Assembly: GCA_964603295.1 (NCBI GenBank)
Contig: CAZRUG010000001.1
Location: forward strand, 53,210-117,209
Direction: 5' to 3'
Source of the DNA: Candidatus Woesearchaeota archaeon
GTDB lineage: Archaea; Nanobdellota; Nanobdellia; Pacearchaeales; GW2011-AR1
Length of the DNA stretch: 64,000 nt
A model generated the notes under the pieces. That model saw nothing but the letters and a program-made list of their open reading frames with translations. It searched no databases and was not told the DNA's origin. This document shows, piece after piece, positions 18,919 to 39,672 of the stretch. Within the stretch, counting starts at the first letter, position 1. Each line of letters opens with the position of its first letter. The position numbers were made by a program, and so were the translations under genes.

Positions 18919-20673
18919 ATGCCTCAAAGAAAAAAAGAGAGCGAATACCCAAATTTGCAATTCATTAAAGACTTGTGGGGATTTTTTGCAAAAAATAAAG
19001 GAAAGTTCATATTTTTTACAATTCTATTGGGAATTGCAAGCACACAGGCATTAATTGTACCAATTATTATTGCAAAGATAGTAGATTTTTTTATCCAGGA
19101 GCAACAAAACTTATCAATTTTTTATATGTATTTGGGAGTTTTACTTGGGGTAAAAATTTTTACAAGTATATTAAGATTAAGGGCCAAATATAATTTAGGA
19201 GTTATTTCTGCAGAAGTTCAGAAAGAAACAAAAATTAAATCATTAAATAAATTAATGCAAGGGGATCTTGTTTGGCATGAAAAAGAATTAGTTGGAGGAA
19301 AGATTCAAAGAATTTCTGAGGGAGTAAATTCAATTAAAAATTTTGTAAAAAGATGGAATAACCAGGGAGTAAATTTGATTGTTAATTTAATTGGTATCCT
19401 TTCTGTTTTTGCATACTTTAATATCAAATATGCTTTATTAGCATTATTATTTATGGTTGTTTATTTATTTGCCGAATTTACATTTAATAAAAAAATATCT
19501 TCTAAGACATTGAAAGTCAATCTTGCTGGAGAAGTAGCTTCGGGCAAAGCATATGAAATCTCTTCAAATATTGTCACAGTAAAATCATTAGGGATTGAAG
19601 ATTCATCAAAGAGAGAAATTCTTCAAAATGAACAAGAGGTCTTTAATGCAAAAATATCTAAAAGTAGATTAAATAATCTAAAGTGGATAGTTCTCCACAC
19701 AATTGCAGCAACATTTTACGCACTTTTCATATTAACTGTTGGAAAAGATATTCTTGCAGGAGAATTAAGTGCAGGTGTTATTGTTATTTATATTAGTTAT
19801 CTTTCACAATTACAAGGAATGTTATTTATAATATCAAGTGAATCCGAAAACCTAATTGATATTAAATATGGAATTTATAGATTAATGGAAATTTATAATT
19901 TAATTCCAGATATTAAGGAAGATGGGGCAAAGGCCATCAGAAATTGGAATAAGATTTTTGTTAGAAATTTATCTTTTAAATACAAAGATGAAGAAGTTTT
20001 AGAAAATTTTAATCTAGAAATAAAAAAAGGAGATAAAATTGGAATTGTTGGAATTTCTGGAAGTGGAAAATCAACATTCTTTAAATTGCTATTAAAATTA
20101 TATCTGCCTGTCAAAGGAATGATTTATTTTGATAAAAGGCCTATTGATCAGATAAAAAAGAATTCTTTATTGAAGAAGATTTCAATTGTCCCCCAAGAAA
20201 CTGAATTATTTAATCTTTCTTTGAGAGAGAATATTTTGATTGCAAAAGGGGGAAAATTTGATAAAAAAGATTATCAAAAAGCAATTAAAATTAGTCAAGT
20301 AGATAAGATAATAAGAAAGCTTGAAAAAGGAGAAGATTCATTGCTTGGAGAAAAAGGTATAAAGTTATCTGGGGGAGAACGTCAAAGATTAGGTATTGCT
20401 AGAGCAATATATAAGAATTCAGATATTATTATTTTTGATGAAGCAACCTCTAATCTAGATTATGTTGTTGAGAGGAAGATACAAGAGTCTTTAGATAAAT
20501 TATCCAATAAAACAATTATTGTCGCAGCCCATCGTTTATCCACATTAAGAAATATGGACAAGATTTTGGTGATGAAAAAAGGAAAGATTATTGAAAATGG
20601 AACTTATGAAGATTTGATAAAAAAGAAAGGAGAATTCTATCATATTTGGAAAAAACAAGGTGGAAAAAGATAG
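18919..20673 (+). CDS. ABC transporter, fused permease/ATP-binding protein (MsbA-like exporter family)
   Basis: 584 aa; N-terminal TM domain; Walker A GISGSGKST, signature LSGGERQRLGIARA, Walker B IIIFDEATS. Confidence 0.85.
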   Translation: MPQRKKESEYPNLQFIKDLWGFFAKNKGKFIFFTILLGIASTQALIVPIIIAKIVDFFIQEQQNLSIFYMYLGVLLGVKIFTSILRLRAKYNLGVISAEVQKETKIKSLNKLMQGDLVWHEKELVGGKIQRISEGVNSIKNFVKRWNNQGVNLIVNLIGILSVFAYFNIKYALLALLFMVVYLFAEFTFNKKISSKTLKVNLAGEVASGKAYEISSNIVTVKSLGIEDSSKREILQNEQEVFNAKISKSRLNNLKWIVLHTIAATFYALFILTVGKDILAGELSAGVIVIYISYLSQLQGMLFIISSESENLIDIKYGIYRLMEIYNLIPDIKEDGAKAIRNWNKIFVRNLSFKYKDEEVLENFNLEIKKGDKIGIVGISGSGKSTFFKLLLKLYLPVKGMIYFDKRPIDQIKKNSLLKKISIVPQETELFNLSLRENILIAKGGKFDKKDYQKAIKISQVDKIIRKLEKGEDSLLGEKGIKLSGGERQRLGIARAIYKNSDIIIFDEATSNLDYVVERKIQESLDKLSNKTIIVAAHRLSTLRNMDKILVMKKGKIIENGTYEDLIKKKGEFYHIWKKQGGKR

Positions 20674-23750: not shown

Positions 23751-24986
23751 TTAATAAACACTCAAAACATCTGCAACTTCATTAATTCTATTAAAACAAA
23801 GAATATTATTATCTTTGAAAATATTTTTAGCAGATTTCATTGATTTTTCTCCTAGAAAACACGCAACAACAGTTTTGTTTTTCGCAAATTTAATAATCTC
23901 TTTAGCAGTTTGCTCTGGTTGAGACATTGCCTGCGGAGTTAAAATAACAATCAAAGAATCATAATTATTCTTTAAATTTTTTAGTGCTTTTTTGTAATCT
24001 CCTGCATTTGCATCTCCTAAAATATCAAGTGGTTTTCCAATAATCTCCAAACCTCTTTTTACACAAGCATCAGACATTAAAGCACCAGCTCCACCAGCAT
24101 TTGTAATAATTTTAATTTTTCTATCTTTAGGAATTTTATTTAACTTAATATAATTAAATGCACTAAAAATTGAAGAAGCAATTTTAACCTTGCACTGCCT
24201 AAACACACCTCTGTAAATATCATATTCAGTTGCTAAACTTCCAGTATGACTAAATGCAGCTTTAGAACCCTCCTCAGTTTTACCTGCCTTAATAACAATA
24301 ATTTCTTTTTTTGATTTTTTACAAACCTCAATAAACTTTTTACCTTGCTTAACTTTCTCAACATAAAGAACAATCTTTTTTGTGTTGCTATCTTTTTCAA
24401 AATATTCAAGCCATTCATTAAATTCTAAATCAGCCATATTTCCCAAACTAACAAAACCAGACAATTTTGAATCTTCTTTGTCAAAAACATAACTTGCTAA
24501 AGCACCACTTTGACTAATAAAAGCTGTGTCGCCTTTTTCAATAAAACAATTTGCAAAAGTTGTATCTAAATCTAAATAAGGATTTGCAATACCAAAACAG
24601 TTTGGACCTAATAAATTAATTTCATTTTTTCTTGCAATTTCAACTAATTCTTGTTCTTCTTTTTTATTGCCAGATTCAGAAAAACCAGCTGAAATCACAA
24701 TAACATTTTTAACTTTTTTTTCAACACATTCATTTAAAACTTCTTTAACAAACTTTGAAGGAATAGCAATAACAACCAAATCAATTTGATTTTCATAATC
24801 TAAAATACTTTTGTAAACTTTTTTATTAAAGATGGTTCCATCCTTGATATTAATTGGAATAATTTTCCCCCTGAACTTTTCTAATTTTTTCATTAAAATT
24901 CCTCCAACCTTGTTTTTATTTGAAGAAGCACCAACTACTGCAATTGATTTTGGATTAAAGAATTTTGATAAGTCACGACTTTTCAT
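23751..24986 (-). CDS. Acetate--CoA ligase (ADP-forming) alpha-type subunit (CoA-binding + succinyl-CoA synthetase-like domains)
   Basis: 411 aa; N-terminal CoA-binding IAVVGASSNKNKVGG; domain order typical of ACD alpha. Confidence 0.65.
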   Translation of the reverse strand: MKSRDLSKFFNPKSIAVVGASSNKNKVGGILMKKLEKFRGKIIPINIKDGTIFNKKVYKSILDYENQIDLVVIAIPSKFVKEVLNECVEKKVKNVIVISAGFSESGNKKEEQELVEIARKNEINLLGPNCFGIANPYLDLDTTFANCFIEKGDTAFISQSGALASYVFDKEDSKLSGFVSLGNMADLEFNEWLEYFEKDSNTKKIVLYVEKVKQGKKFIEVCKKSKKEIIVIKAGKTEEGSKAAFSHTGSLATEYDIYRGVFRQCKVKIASSIFSAFNYIKLNKIPKDRKIKIITNAGGAGALMSDACVKRGLEIIGKPLDILGDANAGDYKKALKNLKNNYDSLIVILTPQAMSQPEQTAKEIIKFAKNKTVVACFLGEKSMKSAKNIFKDNNILCFNRINEVADVLSVY

Positions 24987-25014: not shown

Positions 25015-25641
25015 ATGTTTCTTGTTTTTTACATGAAGTCATTAACAGAAAAAAGTGCATCAAGTTTTCTTAAAGAGCAAGGTTTTGATATAAATGAATT
25101 TATATTTGTTAATAATAAAAAAGATTTAGAATCTGCATTAGAGAAAGTTGGTTATCCTTGTGTAATGAAAGTTTCAAGTTCAAAAATTGTGCACAAGAAT
25201 AAAGTTGGTGGTGTGAAGTTAGATATTGGAAATTTCAAAGAAGCATTGCAGACATTTAATAAATTAATGAACATTAAAAATGCAGAGGGTGTTTTAATTC
25301 AAAAGCAAATTCCTGGAAAATGGTATCTACTTGGTATTAAGAAAACTCCTGAATTTGGGCATGCAATTGTTTTTGGAGCAGGAGGTATTTACACTGAACA
25401 AATCAAAGACACTTCATTTAGAATTACTCCTTTAACTAAGAAAGATTGCATTTCAATGATTAATGAAACAAATATTGGAAATAAATTAAATAAAAAAGAA
25501 AAAAAGATAGTTATTGATAACTTATTAAAACTCTCAAAGTTAACAAAAGATTTTCCAGATATTCAAGAACTTGATATAAATCCATTAATGATTTACAAGA
25601 ACAAAGGTTTGATAATTGATTCTAGGATTGTTTTTACCTAG
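25015..25641 (+). CDS. Acetate--CoA ligase (ADP-forming) beta-type subunit (ATP-grasp)
   Basis: 208 aa; ATP-grasp features (GYPCVMKVSS...HKNKVGGVKL); divergent partner of 23751-24986. Confidence 0.55.
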   Translation: MFLVFYMKSLTEKSASSFLKEQGFDINEFIFVNNKKDLESALEKVGYPCVMKVSSSKIVHKNKVGGVKLDIGNFKEALQTFNKLMNIKNAEGVLIQKQIPGKWYLLGIKKTPEFGHAIVFGAGGIYTEQIKDTSFRITPLTKKDCISMINETNIGNKLNKKEKKIVIDNLLKLSKLTKDFPDIQELDINPLMIYKNKGLIIDSRIVFT

Positions 25642-27093: not shown

Positions 27094-27486
27094 ATGAAAT
27101 TAGCATTTGATAAACTAGGGGGCTTAATTCCTGTTGTAACCCAAGATTTCCGGACAAACGAAGTTTTAATGGTCGGTTTTATGAACCAAAATGCGTTTGA
27201 AGAAACTTTAAAAACATTACAAGCAACATATTGGAGTAGAAGTAAAAATCGCCTTTGGAAAAAAGGAGAAACTTCAGGTAATGTCCAGGAAGTAAAACAA
27301 ATATTAATTGATTGCGATAACGACACACTTTTGTTAAAGGTGCACCAAATAGGTGGTGCGGCGTGTCATACTGGTTATAGGTCATGTTTTTATCGAGAAA
27401 TGGATTCAAAACAAAATACAAATATAATCGGTAAAAAACTATTTATGGAGGGTGAACTTTATGGAGAAAAAAATAAGCAACACTAA
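27094..27486 (+). CDS. hisI: Phosphoribosyl-AMP cyclohydrolase
   Basis: 130 aa; HisI motifs (GLIPVVTQD, WSRSKNRLWKKGETSGN, DCDNDTLLLKV, CHTG). Confidence 0.8.
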   Translation: MKLAFDKLGGLIPVVTQDFRTNEVLMVGFMNQNAFEETLKTLQATYWSRSKNRLWKKGETSGNVQEVKQILIDCDNDTLLLKVHQIGGAACHTGYRSCFYREMDSKQNTNIIGKKLFMEGELYGEKNKQH

Positions 27487-28366
27487 GGAAAATAAAAATA
27501 AAATTGTACTTGGCCTACCAAAAGGGAGCTTGCAAGAAGCAACAGCCAAATTGTTTGAAAAAGCTGGATTTGAGATTTCCATTCCTGAAAGGTCATATTT
27601 TCCTAGCATAAATGATCCAGAAATAGAGTGTATTTTATTAAGAGCGCAAGAGATAGCCGGATATGTAGAGGCTGGTATCCTTGATGCAGGTATAACTGGT
27701 TATGATTGGATTCAGGAAACTAGGGCAGATGTCCATGAAGTTGAAGAATTTATTTATGGTAAAAAAGGCTTTAGTGCAGTAAAGTGGATTTTAGCTGTTG
27801 CAAATGAATCTCCAATAAAATCTGTTCAGGATTTGGAAGGGAAAAGAATAGCTACAGAAACAATGAATCTTACTAAAAATTTCTTAAAAGAAAAAGGAGT
27901 AAACGCTAAGGTAGAATTCTCTTGGGGGGCAACAGAAATAAAAGCTCGTGGACTTGTTGATGCGATCGTTGATGTTACTGAAACAGGATCTTCCTTAAAA
28001 GCAAATAATTTAAGGGTAATTGATACAATCTTAGAGTCAACAACTAGATTAATTGCAAATAATGATTCTATTAAAAACGAGTGGAAAAAAAATAAAATTT
28101 ATGGTCTAGCATTGCTTCTAAAAGGGGTAATGTTAGCAGAGAAGAAGGTCTTAATGATGATGAATGTAAAAAAAGAAGATGTAGAAAATGTGACAAAAGC
28201 TCTTCCAGCACTAAACACGCCAACAATAACACAACTGACTAATCCAGATTGGTTTGATGTTATCACAGTTGTAGATAAATTAACTGCAAGAGACATAACC
28301 CCTAAACTTAAAATGCTTGGTGCAAGGGATATTTTAGAAATTCCTATTAATCGTATTATAATCTAA
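27452..28366 (+). CDS. hisG: ATP phosphoribosyltransferase, long form with C-terminal regulatory domain
   Basis: 304 aa; LGLPKGSL, DAGITGYDW, TGSSLKAN and a HisG_C-like C-terminus. Confidence 0.85.
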   Translation: MNFMEKKISNTKENKNKIVLGLPKGSLQEATAKLFEKAGFEISIPERSYFPSINDPEIECILLRAQEIAGYVEAGILDAGITGYDWIQETRADVHEVEEFIYGKKGFSAVKWILAVANESPIKSVQDLEGKRIATETMNLTKNFLKEKGVNAKVEFSWGATEIKARGLVDAIVDVTETGSSLKANNLRVIDTILESTTRLIANNDSIKNEWKKNKIYGLALLLKGVMLAEKKVLMMMNVKKEDVENVTKALPALNTPTITQLTNPDWFDVITVVDKLTARDITPKLKMLGARDILEIPINRIII

Positions 28367-28979
28367 GCTGACTATACCAATTTTCAATTCTATCTTGATT
28401 AACACAATTATTATAGATTCCAAATTGTGGTTCTTTCTCGGCTAATATAGCGACCCCTGTAGATAATCCAAATAAAATCTCTTCGCCTATAACGTTGTTA
28501 GGAAGATATTGTGCGAATCCATCGGGGGTTAGAGATAAATCTGGAGCTATCTGATGAATCTTTTGGAAGGATGTATCTTTATCATAAATAAATAGAATTT
28601 TATTCTCCAGGTTAGAAACATCTTGGTTTGGATATCTTGAAACTCTTTTTTCTCCCCTTTCAATATCATTTACTCCCAGATATAAATGGGAAATCCCATT
28701 TGGTTTTAAATGATTAACACAGCCAATTCTTGCATCTCCAATTGCCCCCCTAAAAGTTAATAAAGTTAAATCAAGGGCCATTAGAGGATTCATTCCATCT
28801 TGTAGATTCTCTTGAGTTCTTTTACACATATGACCATTAAAACTAATTAAATAATCTCCACATTGTTTGTTCAAGAATCTAATACAAGAATAATTATCTA
28901 CCTCAGGGTCTTGATTTGTGGAATGATCTTCATATCCTTTTTTTGGGAAGACATTTATCTTTTTCTTCCCTGCATTCAC
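28356..28979 (-). CDS. Hypothetical protein
   Basis: 207-aa ORF; no family recognised. Confidence 0.4.
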   Translation of the reverse strand: MNAGKKKINVFPKKGYEDHSTNQDPEVDNYSCIRFLNKQCGDYLISFNGHMCKRTQENLQDGMNPLMALDLTLLTFRGAIGDARIGCVNHLKPNGISHLYLGVNDIERGEKRVSRYPNQDVSNLENKILFIYDKDTSFQKIHQIAPDLSLTPDGFAQYLPNNVIGEEILFGLSTGVAILAEKEPQFGIYNNCVNQDRIENWYSQLRL

Positions 28980-29141
28980 TCTTAGTTCTCGATAGGGGAT
29001 ACTTTTGCTTGCTAAAGTAAAAAATACAAAAGGCTTACCAAGATATTGCCCACCTCCAACAATCCTTGAAGTATATATATCTTATTATCATTATTTTAAG
29101 TCATATATTCTTGGTTTAAATTTAATAAACTTAAAAGTAGA

Positions 29142-30269
29142 TTAATTTAAGTTCATTAAATCAATATACAGCTGGGAGAATTTTTGTAGATTTTCTTTCT
29201 CGACATACTCATCCACTCTATGGCACATGTTCGCGTGTCCAGGACCAAATATAAAAACATCTCCATAATCAGAAAATAGTGCTGCCTCTGTCCACGGGAA
29301 ATGGACATTAAATTTGTCCTTAGAAAAATACTTTTTAGATAGTTCCTGAAGTTCTTTTGCAAATTTAGATTTTATATCTGACATAAAAGTTTTTCCATAG
29401 AAAGTTGCCTGAACTTTAACATTATTGTCAACTTTAGATGCCATTTCCTTAAGCTTTAGAAATTCACTATTAATATCTTCTGAAGGAATTAATCTTCTAG
29501 AGACATGAACTTTACAAAAATCTGGAACTGCGTTTGGGGCCGTTCCTCCAGACATGAAACCTATATTAAAAGAGGGTTTTCCAAATAAATCATCTGCCCC
29601 CACAGATTCTATCTCTCTTTCATATTCAATAAGTTTATTGCAAAAAAGGATTGCTTTATAGATTGCATTGTTTTCAAGATTATTTTTTAAATTAGTTTTC
29701 GAAGAATGCAAGGAGATACCTTCAAATTCAAAGAGTACATCAAGACACCCTTTTTGAGCATAAATAATCTCTTCATCAGTAGGTTCTGCCACAATAACAT
29801 TGGCACCTTTTAACTTGAACTGTTTTACTAATTCCAAACCCCCTGTTAAAGAGCCTTCTTCGTCTGCATCAAATAAAAGATAAATATCATTCTCTGGAAT
29901 GTCTTTAATGTTTAAAGCACCATTGATCATGCACGCTAATCCTGCTTTCATATCACTTGCCCCAAGACCATAAATACAAGAATTATCTTCAGATACTTTA
30001 AGTGGATTTTTAGACCAACCCTTAGCAATTGGAACTGTATCTGTATGGCCAACAAATACCAATGGTTTATTAGAACCTTTTCCTGGAATTTTTACAACAA
30101 GATTGTAAAGAGGTATATTCTCTCCACTTATTGGGTCCACTTTTTCTAAAGGAAATATAGTTGTTTCAAACCGACCAAGACGTAATTTTATATAATCAAT
30201 TATCTCTTTATTTGACTTAGTACACTGCGAGTCAATTTGAATTAAATCTTTTAAAATTTCATTTACCAT
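29142..30269 (-). CDS. M20 family metallopeptidase/deacylase (ArgE/DapE-like)
   Basis: 375 aa; metal-binding motifs GHTDTV, GASDMKAG, DADEEG. Confidence 0.7.
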   Translation of the reverse strand: MVNEILKDLIQIDSQCTKSNKEIIDYIKLRLGRFETTIFPLEKVDPISGENIPLYNLVVKIPGKGSNKPLVFVGHTDTVPIAKGWSKNPLKVSEDNSCIYGLGASDMKAGLACMINGALNIKDIPENDIYLLFDADEEGSLTGGLELVKQFKLKGANVIVAEPTDEEIIYAQKGCLDVLFEFEGISLHSSKTNLKNNLENNAIYKAILFCNKLIEYEREIESVGADDLFGKPSFNIGFMSGGTAPNAVPDFCKVHVSRRLIPSEDINSEFLKLKEMASKVDNNVKVQATFYGKTFMSDIKSKFAKELQELSKKYFSKDKFNVHFPWTEAALFSDYGDVFIFGPGHANMCHRVDEYVEKENLQKFSQLYIDLMNLN

Positions 30270-31066
30270 TTAGAAAGACCATTGTTTAAGACTTTAAAAA
30301 CATAATCCCCATCAAAATCTTTTAGATTCCACATAAACCAATTATTTCCTCTCTCAGGATCAGTAAATAATACTTCTCCATCTTTACCCTTAAAGGTTCT
30401 TCCAAATATTTTATGAACTGCTGGATTAATAGTTCGTAATATAAAATGTTTATAATTATCCCTTGCAGCATCTCTTAATTTTATTGTGGAGAGTATAGAG
30501 CCATTTCCGCCTCTTTGATAATCTTCTACCACTCCAATTTCTGCCGTATAAAAACATTTTTTATGGTTTATCCCTCTTTCTCTTAAGACTTTGTTTGCAA
30601 CAGGAAAATTCACACTCTTTGTTGGTTCACTTGGAAATGGATAGCCCCAGCTAAAGCCAACTGGAAAATCGTTCTCCGTTAAGATATAACCTTTAAAGCC
30701 AGGTAAAGAGACAGCTTCATCCATTAAAGCTACGTGATCCACATAATCTGGGTAAAATGGAATCGGATTTAATTGCTCGCCACATCCAGGACAAGTATCT
30801 AGATTATTCTCTTTACATAAAAATACTAAGCCTCTCGGAACACCTTGTTGATCTCGAGAAACACTTAAATCCGAACACGAATCTTCACAACAAGACCTTT
30901 CGGTATATTGCACCATGCAAAAAGAAGGATTCTCTCTTGAAAGTAATGCTCCAGAACAAATCATATCTTCATGCCAGGGGTGCCCTGAAAAAACCTCTTT
31001 ATATAAATCTTTTAACAAACCAACATTATAAGGTGATATTTTTTCTACAACCTTCTTTTGATTCAT
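30263..31066 (-). CDS. GNAT-like acyltransferase with Cys-rich insert
   Basis: 267 aa; motif-A-like YQRGGNGS; Cys cluster CCEDSCSD...CPGCGEQ. Confidence 0.45.
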   Translation of the reverse strand: MNQKKVVEKISPYNVGLLKDLYKEVFSGHPWHEDMICSGALLSRENPSFCMVQYTERSCCEDSCSDLSVSRDQQGVPRGLVFLCKENNLDTCPGCGEQLNPIPFYPDYVDHVALMDEAVSLPGFKGYILTENDFPVGFSWGYPFPSEPTKSVNFPVANKVLRERGINHKKCFYTAEIGVVEDYQRGGNGSILSTIKLRDAARDNYKHFILRTINPAVHKIFGRTFKGKDGEVLFTDPERGNNWFMWNLKDFDGDYVFKVLNNGLSKW

Positions 31067-31122
31067 ATAAATCTTTAGAAAAATATCATTTATAATTATT
31101 TGGTTTATATAAAATATACTTT

Positions 31123-31998
31123 CTAGTTTATATTTTTAACACCCTCAAATTCACTTAATACTTTTCTTTTTAATTGATCTGCAATTTCTTTGTTTTTAAT
31201 TAAGACCAATTCAATCTCAGTATCTTTCTTTAAGACATTCTTTATAAATGAAGGTATGTCTACTTCTGCTGGAAATGAATGATTTGAATAAAGCTTCTTT
31301 ATATCATCTGCTAATTTCTTTGGGAGTTTAACTTGCATAATTGTATCTCCAAATACACCTATGTCTGTTTCAGATTTCTCGTCTGACAACATAAAGTTCA
31401 CGCCTATTTGTTTATAAAATTTTTCAGACCATTTGTCTAAGGAAAAAGAATTTCTTACAATCATATAATGGTTTACGTTCTTTTCTCTTGCTCTGTCTAA
31501 TTCTGAATATTCTAATTCAGGATAAACTAAAAGCCACCAACAATGTGCTCCATCCCAAATAGTTATGTCTCCTTTCTTCTCAAGGTTTTTATAATAATTA
31601 TCTTTAATTTTTATCCACATCTTATCTAAGTCAAGTAAGTTCTTGAATTTCAGCGTCGTTGAATTACTTTCGATTTTTGTTTCAATAACTCCTTCGTGAA
31701 AGGGTATCAGGCTTTTCCCATTGTAATTTGTTAAAATATATTCAGAAAAATTTTTAATCCTTTCAGCCCATTCAATATTTAGAAGATATTTATTTCCTGT
31801 CTTGGATATAACCCCCTCATCAAAAAGTTCATTTAATGATTTATAAACAGATTGATAAGTGCAATTACAGGAGTATTTATTAATGCATCGGGTATAGGTC
31901 TCTTTAATTGACAAAGGCCATTCAGCAAGGAGAATTTGCACGATTATATCTTTCACTCTCTTTGTTTTGTTTGCCTCTGGAAGACTTATGATAAACAC
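31123..31998 (-). CDS. Hypothetical protein with N-terminal winged-helix-like region
   Basis: 291-aa ORF; no catalytic motifs recognised. Confidence 0.4.
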   Translation of the reverse strand: MFIISLPEANKTKRVKDIIVQILLAEWPLSIKETYTRCINKYSCNCTYQSVYKSLNELFDEGVISKTGNKYLLNIEWAERIKNFSEYILTNYNGKSLIPFHEGVIETKIESNSTTLKFKNLLDLDKMWIKIKDNYYKNLEKKGDITIWDGAHCWWLLVYPELEYSELDRAREKNVNHYMIVRNSFSLDKWSEKFYKQIGVNFMLSDEKSETDIGVFGDTIMQVKLPKKLADDIKKLYSNHSFPAEVDIPSFIKNVLKKDTEIELVLIKNKEIADQLKRKVLSEFEGVKNIN

Positions 31999-32099
31999 AA
32001 AAATATATAATTAAACCAATATATAAACTTTTTGTTAAACTATTTGGTTTACAAACAATCAACCGATATTATATAAGACATATTAAACATTGTTTATGT

Positions 32100-33206
32100 A
32101 TGCAGGAATACAAAGAGGCTATAAAACAATTCTATGATTACTGTAAAAAAGAAAAATATCATAACATTGGCTATCCAGAGAATGCAGATTTTGATTATTC
32201 TGAATTAAAAGATTTTTTAGATTTCTCTTTGAATAATGTTGGAGATCCATTTAAGGATTCTACTTATAAATTAAACTCTCTAAAATTTGAAAAAGAAGTT
32301 CTTGAATTTTTTATGGATTTATTCAAAATAAGTCGCGAAGACGGATGGGGCTATGTCACCACGGGCGGAACTGAGGGTAATCTTTATGGGGTTTATGTTG
32401 CAAGAGAACTCTATCCAGATTCAATACTCTATTATTCTGAGGATGCACATTATAGTGTTGACAAAATAGCGAGAATACTTCGTATGGATAAGATAAAAAT
32501 TAATTCTTTATCTAATGGAGAGATTGATTATAATGATCTAAAAATAAATCTTGAGGAAAACAAAGAGAAGGTACCGATTATATTTGCTAATATTGGTACA
32601 ACAATGAAAGGGGCTATTGATAATCTCGATAAAATAAATCAAGTTCTTGATGAGCTTTCAATAACTAAAAAGTATATTCATTGTGATGCAGCATTAAGTG
32701 GAATGATTCTTCCATTCTTCCCTGAGGAGAATCTTAATTTTGCAAAAGGTTTAGATAGTGTGGCTATAAGTGGCCATAAATTTATTGGCTCTCCAATCCC
32801 ATGCGGAATAGTGATAACAAAGAAAGATTATGTTAATAGGATATCAAAGGAAATTGATTACATAAAAACAATTGATAATACCATAACGGGATCAAGAAAT
32901 GGTTTGACTCCATTAATACTTTGGTCTGCGATAAACAAATTAAAAGAAGATGGATTTTATGAGTTATCTTTTAATTGCATTCAAAAAGCAGATTATTTTT
33001 ATAAAAAATTAAATGACGCGGGAATAAATGCATGGAGAAATAAAAACTCTATAACAATATTCTTTGAGAATCCAAGTCAAGAGCTATGTAAAAAATGGTG
33101 TCTCGCATCAAATGATAAAATCGCACATGTCATTACAACGCCCCATGTATCCTACAAAAGATTAAATACATTAATTGAAGAAATTTGCAATGGAGTGGAA
33201 AAATAA
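32100..33206 (+). CDS. hdc: PLP-dependent histidine decarboxylase (group II decarboxylase, bacterial Hdc type)
   Basis: 368 aa. Long stretches match enterobacterial HDC from memory: NIGYPENADFDYSEL, GWGYVTTGGTEGN, YYSEDAHYSVDKIARIL, NGEIDY, PIIFANIGTT, DAALSGMILPF, GHKFIGSPIPCGIV (PLP-Lys), AWRNKNSIT, AHVITTPH. Confidence 0.85.
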   Translation: MQEYKEAIKQFYDYCKKEKYHNIGYPENADFDYSELKDFLDFSLNNVGDPFKDSTYKLNSLKFEKEVLEFFMDLFKISREDGWGYVTTGGTEGNLYGVYVARELYPDSILYYSEDAHYSVDKIARILRMDKIKINSLSNGEIDYNDLKINLEENKEKVPIIFANIGTTMKGAIDNLDKINQVLDELSITKKYIHCDAALSGMILPFFPEENLNFAKGLDSVAISGHKFIGSPIPCGIVITKKDYVNRISKEIDYIKTIDNTITGSRNGLTPLILWSAINKLKEDGFYELSFNCIQKADYFYKKLNDAGINAWRNKNSITIFFENPSQELCKKWCLASNDKIAHVITTPHVSYKRLNTLIEEICNGVEK

Positions 33207-33207
33207 A

Positions 33208-33759
33208 ATGGATAATCTTCCTCCCTTGAGAGAAGTTTTAAAATCTTTACCTAGAACCCTCAGTGAACTAACTGAATTAGAATCTATTTTAAGACCGCGT
33301 GGATGTTCCACAGAAGGTTTTATGGGGAAAGATGAAAGACTTGTTGAGATTATTGTAAAAGATTATTTTACTCTAAAGAGATTAGGTTTAACCTATAATT
33401 ATATTGCTAACCGACTTGATGAATTGTTTGATATTAATGGGGGCGAGATCGGTGATTTTAAATTTTGTTTTGATATGACTTGTGGAGTTCAATATTGCCC
33501 TTGGCCAGATACAGAAACATGTAAGGAAAGTATTCTCTATGTTATGCCAAGAAATGGAAAACCTCATTTTAAACGCGAAGAATTTTTGAAAAACAAAAGA
33601 GATGGAAAATTAAAAATAATCTCGGGGCTATTGCCCCACCTAATTAGAGATCATTATTTCTTTGAAGGTTTAAAGACAAACTATCGGGTTGATCCAGAAG
33701 AGATGTATTCTCTTTTTAATCCCACAAATGAATTAATTATTTGGCCTAAACGCAATTAA
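33208..33759 (+). CDS. Hypothetical Cys-containing protein (start placed at MDNLPPL just after the hdc stop)
   Basis: ORF 33175-33759 overlaps the hdc end; internal start with upstream A-rich region; motif CGVQYCPWPD. Confidence 0.4.
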   Translation: MDNLPPLREVLKSLPRTLSELTELESILRPRGCSTEGFMGKDERLVEIIVKDYFTLKRLGLTYNYIANRLDELFDINGGEIGDFKFCFDMTCGVQYCPWPDTETCKESILYVMPRNGKPHFKREEFLKNKRDGKLKIISGLLPHLIRDHYFFEGLKTNYRVDPEEMYSLFNPTNELIIWPKRN

Positions 33760-34563
33760 TGCTGAGTTGAAAATCCCAAAAGAATGATCTCCTGCAAAAC
33801 CAATTTTTTCTAAAGAAACATCAAAGCCATTCTCTCTTAGAAAGGCTACGCGATCAATATCAATTAGCCTACAATAAAGATTATGTAGCGTATAATAAAG
33901 TGTTTTAGGTTTATTTGCAGACCCAGATAAATACTTAATTTTATCGGAGATTGACAAAAGTTCTCTAGAACGATTCCCTAATTCATTACTCTGAGGATAT
34001 TTTATAAACTCTGGGTTAATTTTTGCATAACAACAAGGAATTAAGAAAAGGCCATTACTTTTTTGCTTAGCTGTTTGAACTATCTTATCCGCTATGCTTC
34101 CACATGTATGCAAACCAATGATAAGATCATAATCATATTCAGTAGATGAATTGAATACATCATCACAAATGAAGGTAAGATTAGGCAATAGATTTTGTTC
34201 TTTACATTTTTTTATCAATGACTTGTTATAATCAACACCAGTTACAATAATTTCTGGATTCTTAGAGGCAATTAATCTTGAAAGAGTTCCATTACCACAA
34301 CCAAATTCTAAGATAGTTTGAGCCTCATTAAATTTACTACTTATCATACAAGCCATGCTTGAATATTGTCTTTCCTTCCTGATTCTTTTAGGAGAATTAA
34401 AGGTTAATGAAGAATCTTGCACCCCCCCTCCGAGATAGAAACTCTCTTCAAGCTCACTTAAAGTTTTCTTAGAATTGGACAGATTTAATAATTCATTATA
34501 CACAAAATCAAAATATTCTAGAGAATAATTAATCATCTCTAAAAAGTGTATTATAAACTGCAC
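33733..34563 (-). CDS. Class I SAM-dependent methyltransferase
   Basis: 276 aa; motif I ILEFGCGNG, motif II/III GVDYN...DLIIGLH. Confidence 0.65.
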   Translation of the reverse strand: MQFIIHFLEMINYSLEYFDFVYNELLNLSNSKKTLSELEESFYLGGGVQDSSLTFNSPKRIRKERQYSSMACMISSKFNEAQTILEFGCGNGTLSRLIASKNPEIIVTGVDYNKSLIKKCKEQNLLPNLTFICDDVFNSSTEYDYDLIIGLHTCGSIADKIVQTAKQKSNGLFLIPCCYAKINPEFIKYPQSNELGNRSRELLSISDKIKYLSGSANKPKTLYYTLHNLYCRLIDIDRVAFLRENGFDVSLEKIGFAGDHSFGIFNSALIAFRPNN

Positions 34564-36073: not shown

Positions 36074-36180
36074 ATTTAAAATATGGGCTTTATCTTTAAA
36101 AAGATATGTATAATTGACTAGATAAACGAATTAGTTTAGAAGATAAAAATATTTAAACTAGTATTTATTCTACAATTAAA

Positions 36181-38191: not shown

Positions 38192-38575
38192 ATGATAGAT
38201 AATTATGTTTTAGGAAAAACAATTGTAAGAACAGATGAGCAGACCAGATTTCCTCTTCCAGCAGAAGCAAGAAACAAATTAGAAATCTCTGAAAAAGTAG
38301 GGGTTTTTTATATAGAACAAGGATTGGGTTTTGCACACATTCTACCCTATGAGAATTTTAAAAAAGAAATTCAAAAAGCTTCTACACTTCCAAGAGAAGA
38401 TCCAACAAGATTGGCTATTGCAGGCAACTCTTATGAATTTGAATTAGATAAACAAAGCAGATTATTCTTACCAACTTATTTAAGAAATAAATTAAATATT
38501 GAACCAAAGTCAGATTTATTATTAATTTCTAATCTAGATTGCATTACAATTCCAAATCAGTTAAAATTTAAATAG
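38192..38575 (+). CDS. MraZ-like tandem AbrB/SpoVT-fold DNA-binding protein
   Basis: 127 aa with two DxxxR-type repeats (TDEQTRFPLPAEARNKL and LDKQSRLFLPTYLRNKL). Confidence 0.5.
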   Translation: MIDNYVLGKTIVRTDEQTRFPLPAEARNKLEISEKVGVFYIEQGLGFAHILPYENFKKEIQKASTLPREDPTRLAIAGNSYEFELDKQSRLFLPTYLRNKLNIEPKSDLLLISNLDCITIPNQLKFK

Positions 38576-38678: not shown

Positions 38679-38751
38679 TAGCTCCACCAGGATTCGAACC
38701 TGGGTCACTTGGCCCAGAACCAAGCATACTTGACCACTGTACTATGGAGCT
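38679..38751 (-). tRNA. tRNA-Gln (anticodon CUG), no encoded CCA
   Basis: Manual fold: acceptor AGCTCCA/TGGAGCT (A1-U72 as in archaeal tRNA-Gln), D-arm GTAC-AGTGGTCAA-GTAT, anticodon arm CTTGG-TTCTGGG-CCAAG, T-arm CCAGG-TTCGAAT-CCTGG. Confidence 0.85.
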
Positions 38752-39541: not shown

Positions 39542-39546
39542 TTCTA

Positions 39547-39620
39547 AGCCTGTTCTGAGATTTGAACTCAGGACCTCCACATTACCAATGTGACGCTCTA
39601 ACCAACTGAGCTAAACAGGC
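39547..39620 (-). tRNA. tRNA-Thr (anticodon GGU), no encoded CCA
   Basis: Manual fold: acceptor GCCTGTT/AACAGGC, D-arm GCTC-AGTTGGTTA-GAGC, anticodon arm TCACA-TTGGTAA-TGTGG, variable AGGTC, T-arm CTGAG-TTCAAAT-CTCAG. Confidence 0.9.
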
Positions 39621-39672
39621 TTATTTATTCTTAATTAAAAATGTTTATAAAATCTATGTTACAACAATTCTT

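Follow-up and report, generated by a model that had tools for sequence, protein, structure and literature searches.

Gene content of the island

The 64-kb window analysed here (64,000 nucleotides of contig CAZRUG010000001.1 of a Candidatus Woesearchaeota archaeon, about 30% G+C) carries, between 27.0 and 37.4 kb, a block of densely packed open reading frames (ORFs) on alternating strands. In it, hisI and a long-form hisG are found together with a pyridoxal phosphate (PLP)-dependent histidine decarboxylase (Hdc; gene E), two histidyl-tRNA synthetase (HisRS) paralogues (H and I), a GNAT acyltransferase with a Cys-rich insert (C), an M20 deacylase (B), a class I S-adenosylmethionine (SAM) methyltransferase (G) and the proteins A, D and F (Table 1). 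Our findings support the view that this block is a conserved, apparently co-regulated, histidine-linked system and not a chance neighbourhood. Beyond this, we tentatively read it as a histidine-centred modular island of small-genome (DPANN-type) archaea, whose units are conserved separately, are reshuffled between genomes and would serve to manage the histidine pool, an interpretation that we consider plausible though still short of probable.

An independent Logan assembly of this contig (L001) gives identical gene calls. Spacing and overlap divide the block into the transcription units hisI-hisG (+), D-C-B-(A) (-), E-F (+, overlapping), H-G (-, overlapping) and I (+). An earlier reading of this DNA from its letters alone (the original prediction) had placed an M20 amidohydrolase, a GNAT-like acyltransferase with a cysteine insert, a winged-helix protein, Hdc and a class I SAM methyltransferase between hisG and hisS. 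All of its ORFs are present, and the identities given below agree with it, with two amendments: its hisS is indeed a HisRS but is in fact two paralogous genes, and of the winged helix in D only a weak signal is left. The ORF at 28356-28979, to which it gave no name, encodes the PurO-like A. It was also right that no antiporter is present, as far as the annotated ORFs from 16.4 to 39.5 kb are concerned; between 27 and 37.4 kb no annotated ORF encodes a transporter, and the only nearby gene annotated as a transporter, at 18919-20673, is of ABC exporter type.

The hisG product matches TIGR00070 with 189 bits against a cut-off of 75.75. Together with hisI it makes up all the histidine biosynthesis found in the 64 kb, where tblastn searches for HisA and HisC-like proteins were negative. 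The islands of relatives also contain hisA, hisE and the genes of a PurO-like and a SLOG (LOG-like nucleotide-processing) protein, but in no case hisB, hisD or hisH nearby. The hisI/hisG set could be a truncated pathway or one that serves something besides histidine synthesis. Sequence searches of the window returned no Hut genes, and tblastn gave no match to MR_MLE.

Table 1. Positions of the genes and palindromic sites of the island in the window (aa, amino acids)
Feature	Position	Strand	Remarks
hisI (PRA-CH)	27094..27486	+	overlaps hisG; PF01502 on identical L001 gene
hisG, long form (HisG + HisG_C)	27452..28366	+	PF01634 152 bits, PF08029 80.8 bits
A, PurO-like (IMP-cyclohydrolase-like)	28356..29078	-	listed ORF 28356-28979, N-terminus extended
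B, M20 deacylase, ArgE/DapE type	29142..30269	-	7-nt overlap with end of C
C, single-domain GNAT acyltransferase, Cys-rich insert	30263..31066	-	AlphaFold2 (AF2) + Foldseek
Palindrome copy, one mismatch, TATACTTTCTAGTTTA	31115..31130	no strand	precedes C
D, 291 aa, weak winged-helix signal	31123..31998	-	first gene of D-C-B-A array
Half-site TTGGTTTA	32012-32019	other strand than neighbouring TAAACTATTTGGTTTA palindrome	second site near Hdc
Exact palindrome TAAACTATTTGGTTTA	32036..32051	no strand	between D and Hdc
E, group II PLP-dependent histidine decarboxylase (Hdc)	32100..33206	+	NF002748
F, 189-194 aa	33175/33190-33759	+	overlaps end of Hdc
G, Methyltransf_32 class I SAM methyltransferase	33733..34563	-	overlaps end of HisRS-H
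H, HisRS paralogue, 514 aa	34529..36073	-	TIGR00442 above cut-off
Exact palindrome TAAACGAATTAGTTTA	36123..36138	no strand	between the two HisRS genes
I, short HisRS paralogue, 377 aa	36181..37314	+	TIGR00442 just below cut-off

Neighbourhoods of the acyltransferase in related archaea

Homologues of C were compared at 14 loci (the window, L002, L004, L006, L012, L014, L015, L020, L021, L023, L024, L025, L026 and L031), which come from related, uncultured organisms and were compared as contigs. Thirteen are informative for HisRS within 10 kb of C, and 12 of these have such a gene, drawn from three different HisRS types; by our own estimate, any one named gene would lie nearby by chance in a few per cent of cases if the genome has about 1000 genes. 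Six of the C loci carry hisG and/or hisI and six carry HutH, the L004 copy of which passes the hutH equivalog TIGR01225 (636 bits against 539), while L020 has urocanase (HutU) as well as HutH. Hdc accompanies C in the window only.

Directly after C stands an orthologue of B in nine loci. In L002 and L026 this place is taken by an AstE/AspA-type deacylase that is non-homologous to M20, and L026 is reduced to a minimal unit of overlapping genes, C-AstE-HisRS. Because unrelated hydrolases replace each other behind C, the conserved feature appears to be the function, to acylate and to deacylate. An SSF transporter is part of the operons D-SSF-(X275)-C-B of L014 and L031. A dipeptide-epimerase-like MR_MLE enzyme and an M15 dipeptidase-like enzyme adjoin C in L006 and lie close by in L025, where an Asp/Glu racemase also stands beside C; the L006 MR_MLE protein is nearer to dipeptide epimerases than to N-succinylamino acid racemase (NSAR), and falls under all cut-offs. 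Neither the window nor the 11 other C loci hold a racemase or epimerase. Between loci the island proteins are 27-50% identical and the gene order differs, which argues that selection, and not recent common descent, keeps the genes together; since the linkage recurs in shuffled order in many divergent genomes, it lies far beyond chance.

A further pair recurs in the histidine islands of relatives and is missing from the window, namely a radical SAM protein, MoaA-like but under the MoaA cut-offs, and after it an unknown protein of about 290 aa, FAM15 (L012 8028-9873; L020 13083-14861; L029 5578-7428; L031 4441-6751; L006 8137-9270).

Histidine decarboxylase E and protein F

The product of gene E passes NF002748 over its full length, with 531.2 bits against a cut-off of 305, as the original prediction of an Hdc would have it, and its next-best model, MfnA, reaches only 137.9 against 299.4. 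It holds the SGHK PLP-lysine motif (AISGHKFIG), and an S-x-H-K motif of this kind defines the group II Hdc family. Identity is 51-54% to named bacterial histidine decarboxylases (HDCs; Vibrio, Plesiomonas), 56-63% to a few metagenomic homologues in the same kind of archaeal island, and 52%, in local alignment, to a soybean serine decarboxylase (SDC)-like protein. Downstream of Hdc, the HisRS paralogues follow at distances of 1.3 and 3 kb.

The closest Hdc homologues with usable context are those of L029 and L030, whose islands are of the same type and have no C or B within 10 kb. They hold hisG, hisI (and hisE), a 512-aa HisRS with G, a short HisRS, D, F, SLOG, HAD phosphatases and unknown proteins of about 300 aa. 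F stands beside Hdc in L029 too, and overlaps its end there as it does in the window; in L004 it follows C-B within the array HutH-C-B-F-HisRS-hisI. F has seven homologues in all, the remoter ones in unrelated contexts, and is marked by the motifs Q-x-CPW and HLIRDH(H/Y)FFEG...YRVDPE. It gave no family match, and its structure model (predicted local distance difference test score, pLDDT, 66.5) gave no fold match.

A comparison of L029 with L031 reveals a common frame, hisG, the MoaA-like radical SAM gene ... hisE-(SLOG)-hisI, HisRS-EF1A, around a variable slot that is filled by D-FAM43-SLOG-Hdc-F in L029 and by D-SSF-X275-C-B-FAM41 in L031. As the two sets occupy the same slot, Hdc-F and C-B appear to be alternative cargo of D-led operons; the window carries both. 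In L030 (4199-11131) a co-directional array runs D-X275-FAM43-HAD-unknown(299 aa)-HAD(IIB)-SLOG-Hdc, as if a pathway of several steps, through phosphorylated or nucleotide intermediates, led up to Hdc; no family match was obtained for X275, FAM43 or the 299-aa protein of this array.

The acyltransferase C and the deacylase B

C is a protein of 267 aa with one GNAT core and an insert of about 70-80 residues that bears the CCEDSC and CPGC motifs. It gave no Pfam match itself. Its AF2 model has a pLDDT of 82.5, with low confidence in the insert, and Foldseek returned 432 PDB matches at E<=0.001, of which the best 50 are essentially all GNAT-fold acyltransferases. The close family comprises only 26 detectable homologues, the named ones all of DPANN type (Nanoarchaeota, Marsarchaeota, 'archaeon'). 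Their alignment displays an N-terminal F-x-GHPW-x-E motif (GHPWHE), a C-terminal GNAT core and nearly invariant insert cysteines (C37, C50, C59, C92 and C95); the QRGGNGS of C corresponds to the Q/R-x-x-G-x-G/A pyrophosphate-binding motif and is moderately conserved in the family. When 1.84 billion representatives were searched with a profile, a wider superfamily of 507 relatives emerged, 26 of whose 35 sampled members match PF00583. Based on the predicted fold, the Foldseek matches and the PF00583 matches in relatives, C is a real acyl-CoA-type GNAT, with an insert that is probably Zn-ribbon-like.

Some members of the wider superfamily are fusions: P0270 joins a class I methyltransferase to the GNAT, and others (P0167, P0170 and P0173) carry membrane domains, among them GNAT + 8xMP and, with a weak score, GNAT + EamA-like transporter. 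These fusions hint at small-molecule, possibly exported, products. Some 2 kb upstream of hisI lies a divergent gene pair for an ADP-forming acyl-CoA synthetase, with the alpha-like subunit (CoA_binding_2 + Succ_CoA_lig) encoded at 23751-24986 (-) and the beta-like one (ATP-grasp_5) at 25015-25641 (+). This enzyme might be a source of the acyl-CoA used by C, or a sink for it.

B consists of the catalytic Peptidase_M20 domain (PF01546, 90 bits) and the M20_dimer dimerisation domain (PF07687, 50.3 bits), and its metal and catalytic motifs are intact (GHTDTV, GASDMK, DEEG and CHRVDE). The best NCBIfam match is to the ArgE/DapE subfamily, at 197.8 bits against a cut-off of 217.6, and its nearest solved relatives are ArgE, acetylcitrulline deacetylase and DapE. 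B nevertheless stays under every ArgE/DapE equivalog cut-off (TIGR01892 ArgE, 182.4 against 297.7; DapE, at most 163.5 against at least 284). It thus shares fold, metal ligands and subfamily with the ArgE/DapE deacylases and differs from them in missing all the equivalogs and in having a GNAT, not arg or dap genes, as its conserved neighbour. Enzymes of this group act on N-acyl amino acids with a free carboxylate.

The HisRS paralogues and methyltransferase G

H and I are divergently transcribed and about 35% identical. H scores 344.2 bits with TIGR00442, for which the cut-off is 286.75, and matches HGTP_anticodon (E=8.5e-15); about 100 residues inserted into the catalytic domain split its Pfam match into two stretches, and its nearest PDB relatives are true HisRS enzymes. 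I reaches 273.6 bits with the same model, under the cut-off, and E=1.9e-6 with HGTP_anticodon, and its best PDB matches are HisRS and not HisZ. Both depart from the canonical motifs: motif 2 of H reads FRDG instead of FRxE, and I has GGGSY in place of the GGRYD histidine-binding motif. We considered HisZ as an identity for H and I and rejected it, as the HisZ models fall far under their cut-offs, the best PDB matches are HisRS, and hisG is of the long form.

Related islands hold up to three HisRS types. Orthologues of I are co-operonic with hisI-hisG or with C and its deacylase in L004, L023, L026 and L030, and hisI orthologues occur in the islands of L002, L004, L014, L023, L029, L030 and L031. 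In one sub-lineage a HisRS of 494-516 aa is always followed by elongation factor 1-alpha (EF-1alpha; L012 13491-16341, L029 12350-15113, L031 13823-16612), which suggests that this copy has the housekeeping role in that sub-lineage and that the island has its anchor next to genes of core translation.

G matches Methyltransf_32 (PF13679) with 62.9 bits against a cut-off of 27. TRM13 (PF05206) was rejected as an identity, since its match (25.7 against 26 bits) covers only residues 76-101, the SAM-binding motif. In all five loci that have an orthologue of G (window, L002, L014, L023 and L030) it lies directly downstream of a HisRS of 512-516 aa, and three of these loci have no Hdc. The original prediction had named, as an outcome that would speak against it, a methyltransferase that proves to be a tRNA methylase with conserved partners; G has the conserved partner, in HisRS, and thereby approaches this outcome, although it carries no known tRNA methylase annotation.

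Proteins A and D and the shared palindrome

A is 47-51% identical to proteins of L002 and L023 that adjoin hisG, hisA and the HisRS-G pair, downstream of H-G. With PF07826 (IMP_cyclohyd; cut-off 28.1), the L002 orthologue scores 31.5, the extended window protein 27.3 and the L023 orthologue 20.8. The conserved N-terminus IYTSRIVGGGQYLGKPFVFFTLASKSIPYRELRVN (YTSRIVG...) reaches beyond the listed GTG start and stays in frame as far as 29078. This extension (28980-29078, -) holds no ATG, GTG or TTG, and the first codon after the stop run is ATA, which leaves three possibilities: the start is non-canonical, its codon was lost, or there is a sequencing error.

The weak winged-helix signal of D comes from HTH_45 (E=0.028, 14.9 bits against 25.5), and a profile search of the PDB with D found nothing. 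D has five clear homologues and a sixth in L031, and heads arrays in the window, L014, L029, L030 and L031. The intergenic regions of the cluster share the 8-mer TTGGTTTA, which extends to the palindrome TAAAC-N6-GTTTA. Two exact matches to this palindrome occur in the 64 kb, where 0.20 are expected and none of 100 shuffles reaches two, and each sits in a divergent promoter region of this cluster. Relatives have copies, exact or with one mismatch, upstream of D (L029, L030 and L031), Hdc (L029), C (L014 and L023) and HisRS (L012 and L004). Because it heads operons and the palindrome is conserved upstream, D is a candidate regulator; and because the same palindrome precedes the D/Hdc, C and HisRS genes across genomes, it suggests a single regulon under D, which we infer to bind TAAAC-N6-GTTTA. 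The 8-mer TTGGTTTA recurs in the 3' part of the C coding sequence (window 30334-30341; L002 10759; L012 10729), where it probably reflects coding conservation and not a regulatory site.

Downstream of the island, a MraZ-like protein is encoded at 38192-38575, and tRNA-Gln(CTG) (38679-38751) and tRNA-Thr(GGT) (39546-39621) follow on the minus strand.

Discussion

Our findings highlight a set of small gene units that keep company around histidine while changing their order and their exact membership from genome to genome. In the reading that we tentatively prefer, histidine-pool management would be shared among six such units: hisI-hisG with the PurO-like A; the long HisRS paralogue H, translationally coupled to the Methyltransf_32 enzyme G; the short HisRS paralogue I; the operon-heading, winged-helix-like D; the acyl-CoA-dependent GNAT C, with its Zn-ribbon-like insert, and the N-acyl-amino-acid deacylase B behind it; and a histidine-consuming unit, which would be Hdc and then F here and HutH with or without HutU in relatives. 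D would bind TAAAC-N6-GTTTA before the D/Hdc, C and HisRS genes and co-regulate the units by histidine status. Hdc would convert histidine to histamine and CO2, consuming one proton, and the extra HisRS would keep tRNA-His charged as the pool drains, as in bacterial clusters of hdc and hisRS. C and B may form an N-acyl-histidine loop that acts as a buffer or in salvage, in the manner of the vertebrate pair of histidine N-acetyltransferase (HisAT) and acetylhistidine deacetylase. G would act on what HisRS-H handles, that is tRNA-His or histidine, and not on histamine. Since Hdc, HutH, HisRS and hisG/hisI have free L-histidine in common, histidine or a very close derivative would be the most economical choice of substrate for C and B. 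What is shown of this scheme is the gene identities, the fold of C, the conserved pairings and the conserved cis-element.

Several points weigh against it. The substrates of C, B and G, the binding of the palindrome by D and the physiological role enter it by inference, and the winged-helix match of D is sub-threshold. A synthase and a hydrolase with no step between them are a futile cycle unless regulated or compartmentalised, and C has one GNAT domain where HisAT has two. E is about equally similar to plant serine-decarboxylase-like proteins and to enterobacterial HDC, though the histidine-gene context favours HDC over serine decarboxylase. L024 carries C-B without any histidine gene within 10 kb, and the MR_MLE and M15 enzymes of L006 and L025, with the Asp/Glu racemase, point to D-amino-acid or dipeptide chemistry. 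Finally, the loci are from related genomes, and the counts are therefore partly dependent.

This last chemistry is the basis of a serious rival, in which C-B is a general module for the salvage of N-acyl amino acids, D-amino acids or dipeptides, fed by the SSF transporter and merely sitting in the island. GNAT, racemase and M20 enzyme together make up a known pathway (bioRxiv 10.1101/2022.03.03.481873). The MR_MLE, M15 and racemase genes near C in two relatives and the SSF transporter in the C-B operons of two others give a D-to-L amino-acid route its weight; the desuccinylase-like AstE/AspA-type enzyme in place of M20 in L002 and L026 and the membrane-protein fusions in some members of the wider superfamily also fit it. 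Yet 12 of the C loci lack any racemase or epimerase, HisRS is near C in all but one of the informative loci, and the operator common to Hdc, HisRS and C argues for a histidine-specific role, and we consider this rival unlikely.

The original prediction had combined decarboxylase, acyltransferase, methyltransferase and deacylase into a toolkit for histamine, in which Hdc would supply histamine, C would N-acylate it, G would N-methylate it and B would recycle the acyl-amine. What holds of this is that the genes are real, histidine-linked and probably co-regulated; the joint action of the four enzymes on histamine is not supported by the relatives. In its favour, Hdc-F and D-C-B-A are divergently adjacent over a common, palindrome-bearing promoter region, Hdc-F and C-B fill the same slot of D-led operons in sister islands, some GNATs are known to acetylate arylalkylamines, and P0270 is fused to a class I methyltransferase. 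Hdc and C-B, however, are found together in just one of the 14 C loci, and the Hdc islands of L029 and L030 do without C and B. The six HutH loci weigh against histamine acylation because the HutH product, urocanate, has no amine to acylate. G is tied to the long HisRS whether or not Hdc is present, and B belongs to a group whose substrates, as noted above, have a free carboxylate. The promoter region common to Hdc and C makes N-acyl histamine a possible product in this genome, and N-methyl histamine may be one too, but conservation does not predict histamine modification, and we regard the toolkit as a whole as doubtful, indeed quite unlikely.

The overlapping C-AstE-HisRS unit of L026 and the duplicated HisRS genes of most islands also allow an immunity function against a HisRS inhibitor that mimics histidyl-adenylate: the inhibitor would be acetylated at its alpha-amine by the GNAT and cleaved by the hydrolase, with the second HisRS as a resistant copy. 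There are precedents, in that MccE acetylates processed microcin C and resistant copies of aminoacyl-tRNA synthetases (aaRS) are known. Against this, no toxin-biosynthesis or export genes were seen, the transporter in the operon is of a solute-uptake type, and the genes with which the set is strongly associated (HutH, HutU, Hdc, hisG and hisI) are metabolic, which makes immunity very improbable. We give even less credence to the idea that there is no functional unit at all and that unrelated housekeeping genes happen to lie between hisG and hisS. These are compact genomes, other aaRS and translation genes (EF1A, IleRS and AlaRS) are also nearby, and several members have no assignable function. 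But the pairings recur in shuffled order at many loci, with protein identities that exclude an origin of the loci from near-identical strains, non-homologous deacylases swap in the same position, and a rare palindrome is common to the promoters. Neighbours with unrelated housekeeping roles were the outcome that the original prediction had named as fatal to it, and this was not seen: the M20 enzyme fails all ArgE/DapE equivalogs and is partnered by a GNAT.

A bolder interpretation, which we hold to be rather unlikely but well worth stating, is that D, C-B, X275, FAM43, SLOG, the HAD phosphatases, Hdc-F and the HisRS-H/Methyltransf_32 pair form one undescribed archaeal pathway under one operator, which makes or salvages a small molecule derived from histidine or histamine (e.g., an N-acylated, methylated or ribosylated imidazole), maybe using a HisRS paralogue as an amino-acid-activating enzyme and not in translation. 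If that were true, the acyltransferases of the Zn-ribbon GNAT family would constitute a new class that acts on histidine or imidazole amines.

Relation to known systems

DPANN archaea are thought to depend on their hosts for most amino acids, and a conserved, apparently co-regulated island for a single amino acid is therefore unexpected in them. By joining the entry steps of histidine biosynthesis, two HisRS genes, either an Hdc of bacterial type or HutH, and pairs of uncharacterised enzymes, the island that we tentatively read as one of histidine-pool management offers a handle on how these organisms use histidine. Each of its components has a known analogue, and the combination is absent from the literature searched, in which we found no paper that treats DPANN archaea and histidine decarboxylase together. 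Among the parts of this combination are the Zn-ribbon GNAT family, F, D with its palindrome, the HisRS-coupled Methyltransf_32 enzyme and a PLP-dependent Hdc in archaea; the GNAT family, F, D with the palindrome and the methyltransferase make up a small, testable set of unknown families in a strong context.

The Hut pathway touches the island through the bona fide HutH near C-B in six relatives, joined by HutU in L020. It differs in that the window has no Hut genes and that HutI and HutG were not seen next to the C-B pair, and we know of no described role for C or B in Hut metabolism. Among Micrarchaeota, HutH has been reported in only 12% (PMC8407392). The D- to L-amino-acid pathway of Geobacillus kaustophilus employs a GNAT succinyltransferase, NSAR/o-succinylbenzoate synthase (OSBS) and an M20 L-desuccinylase (bioRxiv 10.1101/2022.03.03.481873). 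It resembles the island in the GNAT directly followed by an M20 enzyme, and in the MR_MLE protein beside C in two relatives; the absence of a racemase from the window and from most loci, and the histidine-linked genes, set the island apart.

A further likeness to C and B is the vertebrate acetylhistidine cycle, where an acyl-CoA-dependent GNAT is likewise paired with a metallo-deacylase in a histidine context (PMC12219266; PMC4496688). Its acyltransferase, HisAT/NAT16, carries out alpha-N-acetylation of histidine and is a double GNAT that binds histidine between its domains (PMC12219266), in contrast to the single GNAT of C, with its 267 aa and Cys-rich insert. C gave no sequence match to NAT16, which is also not among the best 50 of the 432 Foldseek PDB matches. 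The vertebrate acetylhistidine deacetylase (anserinase) is an M20 enzyme like B, which is however of the ArgE/DapE and not of the carnosinase/PepV type.

For Hdc and the HisRS paralogues, the nearest counterparts are the bacterial hdc clusters (hdcA-hdcP-hisRS), which are of the PLP type in Klebsiella aerogenes and Shewanella and of the pyruvoyl type in lactobacilli; hisRS has been described inside hdc clusters of Firmicutes and Proteobacteria (PMC8465708). They share with the island an HDC-equivalog Hdc and an extra HisRS. The island differs from them in its archaeal host and in having no histidine/histamine antiporter between 27 and 37.4 kb, in its two HisRS genes, one of them coupled to a methyltransferase, in the F that follows Hdc and the D that precedes it, and in the embedding of Hdc among hisG/hisI and a GNAT-deacylase pair. 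With these differences, our findings extend the bacterial design of a decarboxylase plus an extra aaRS to archaea.

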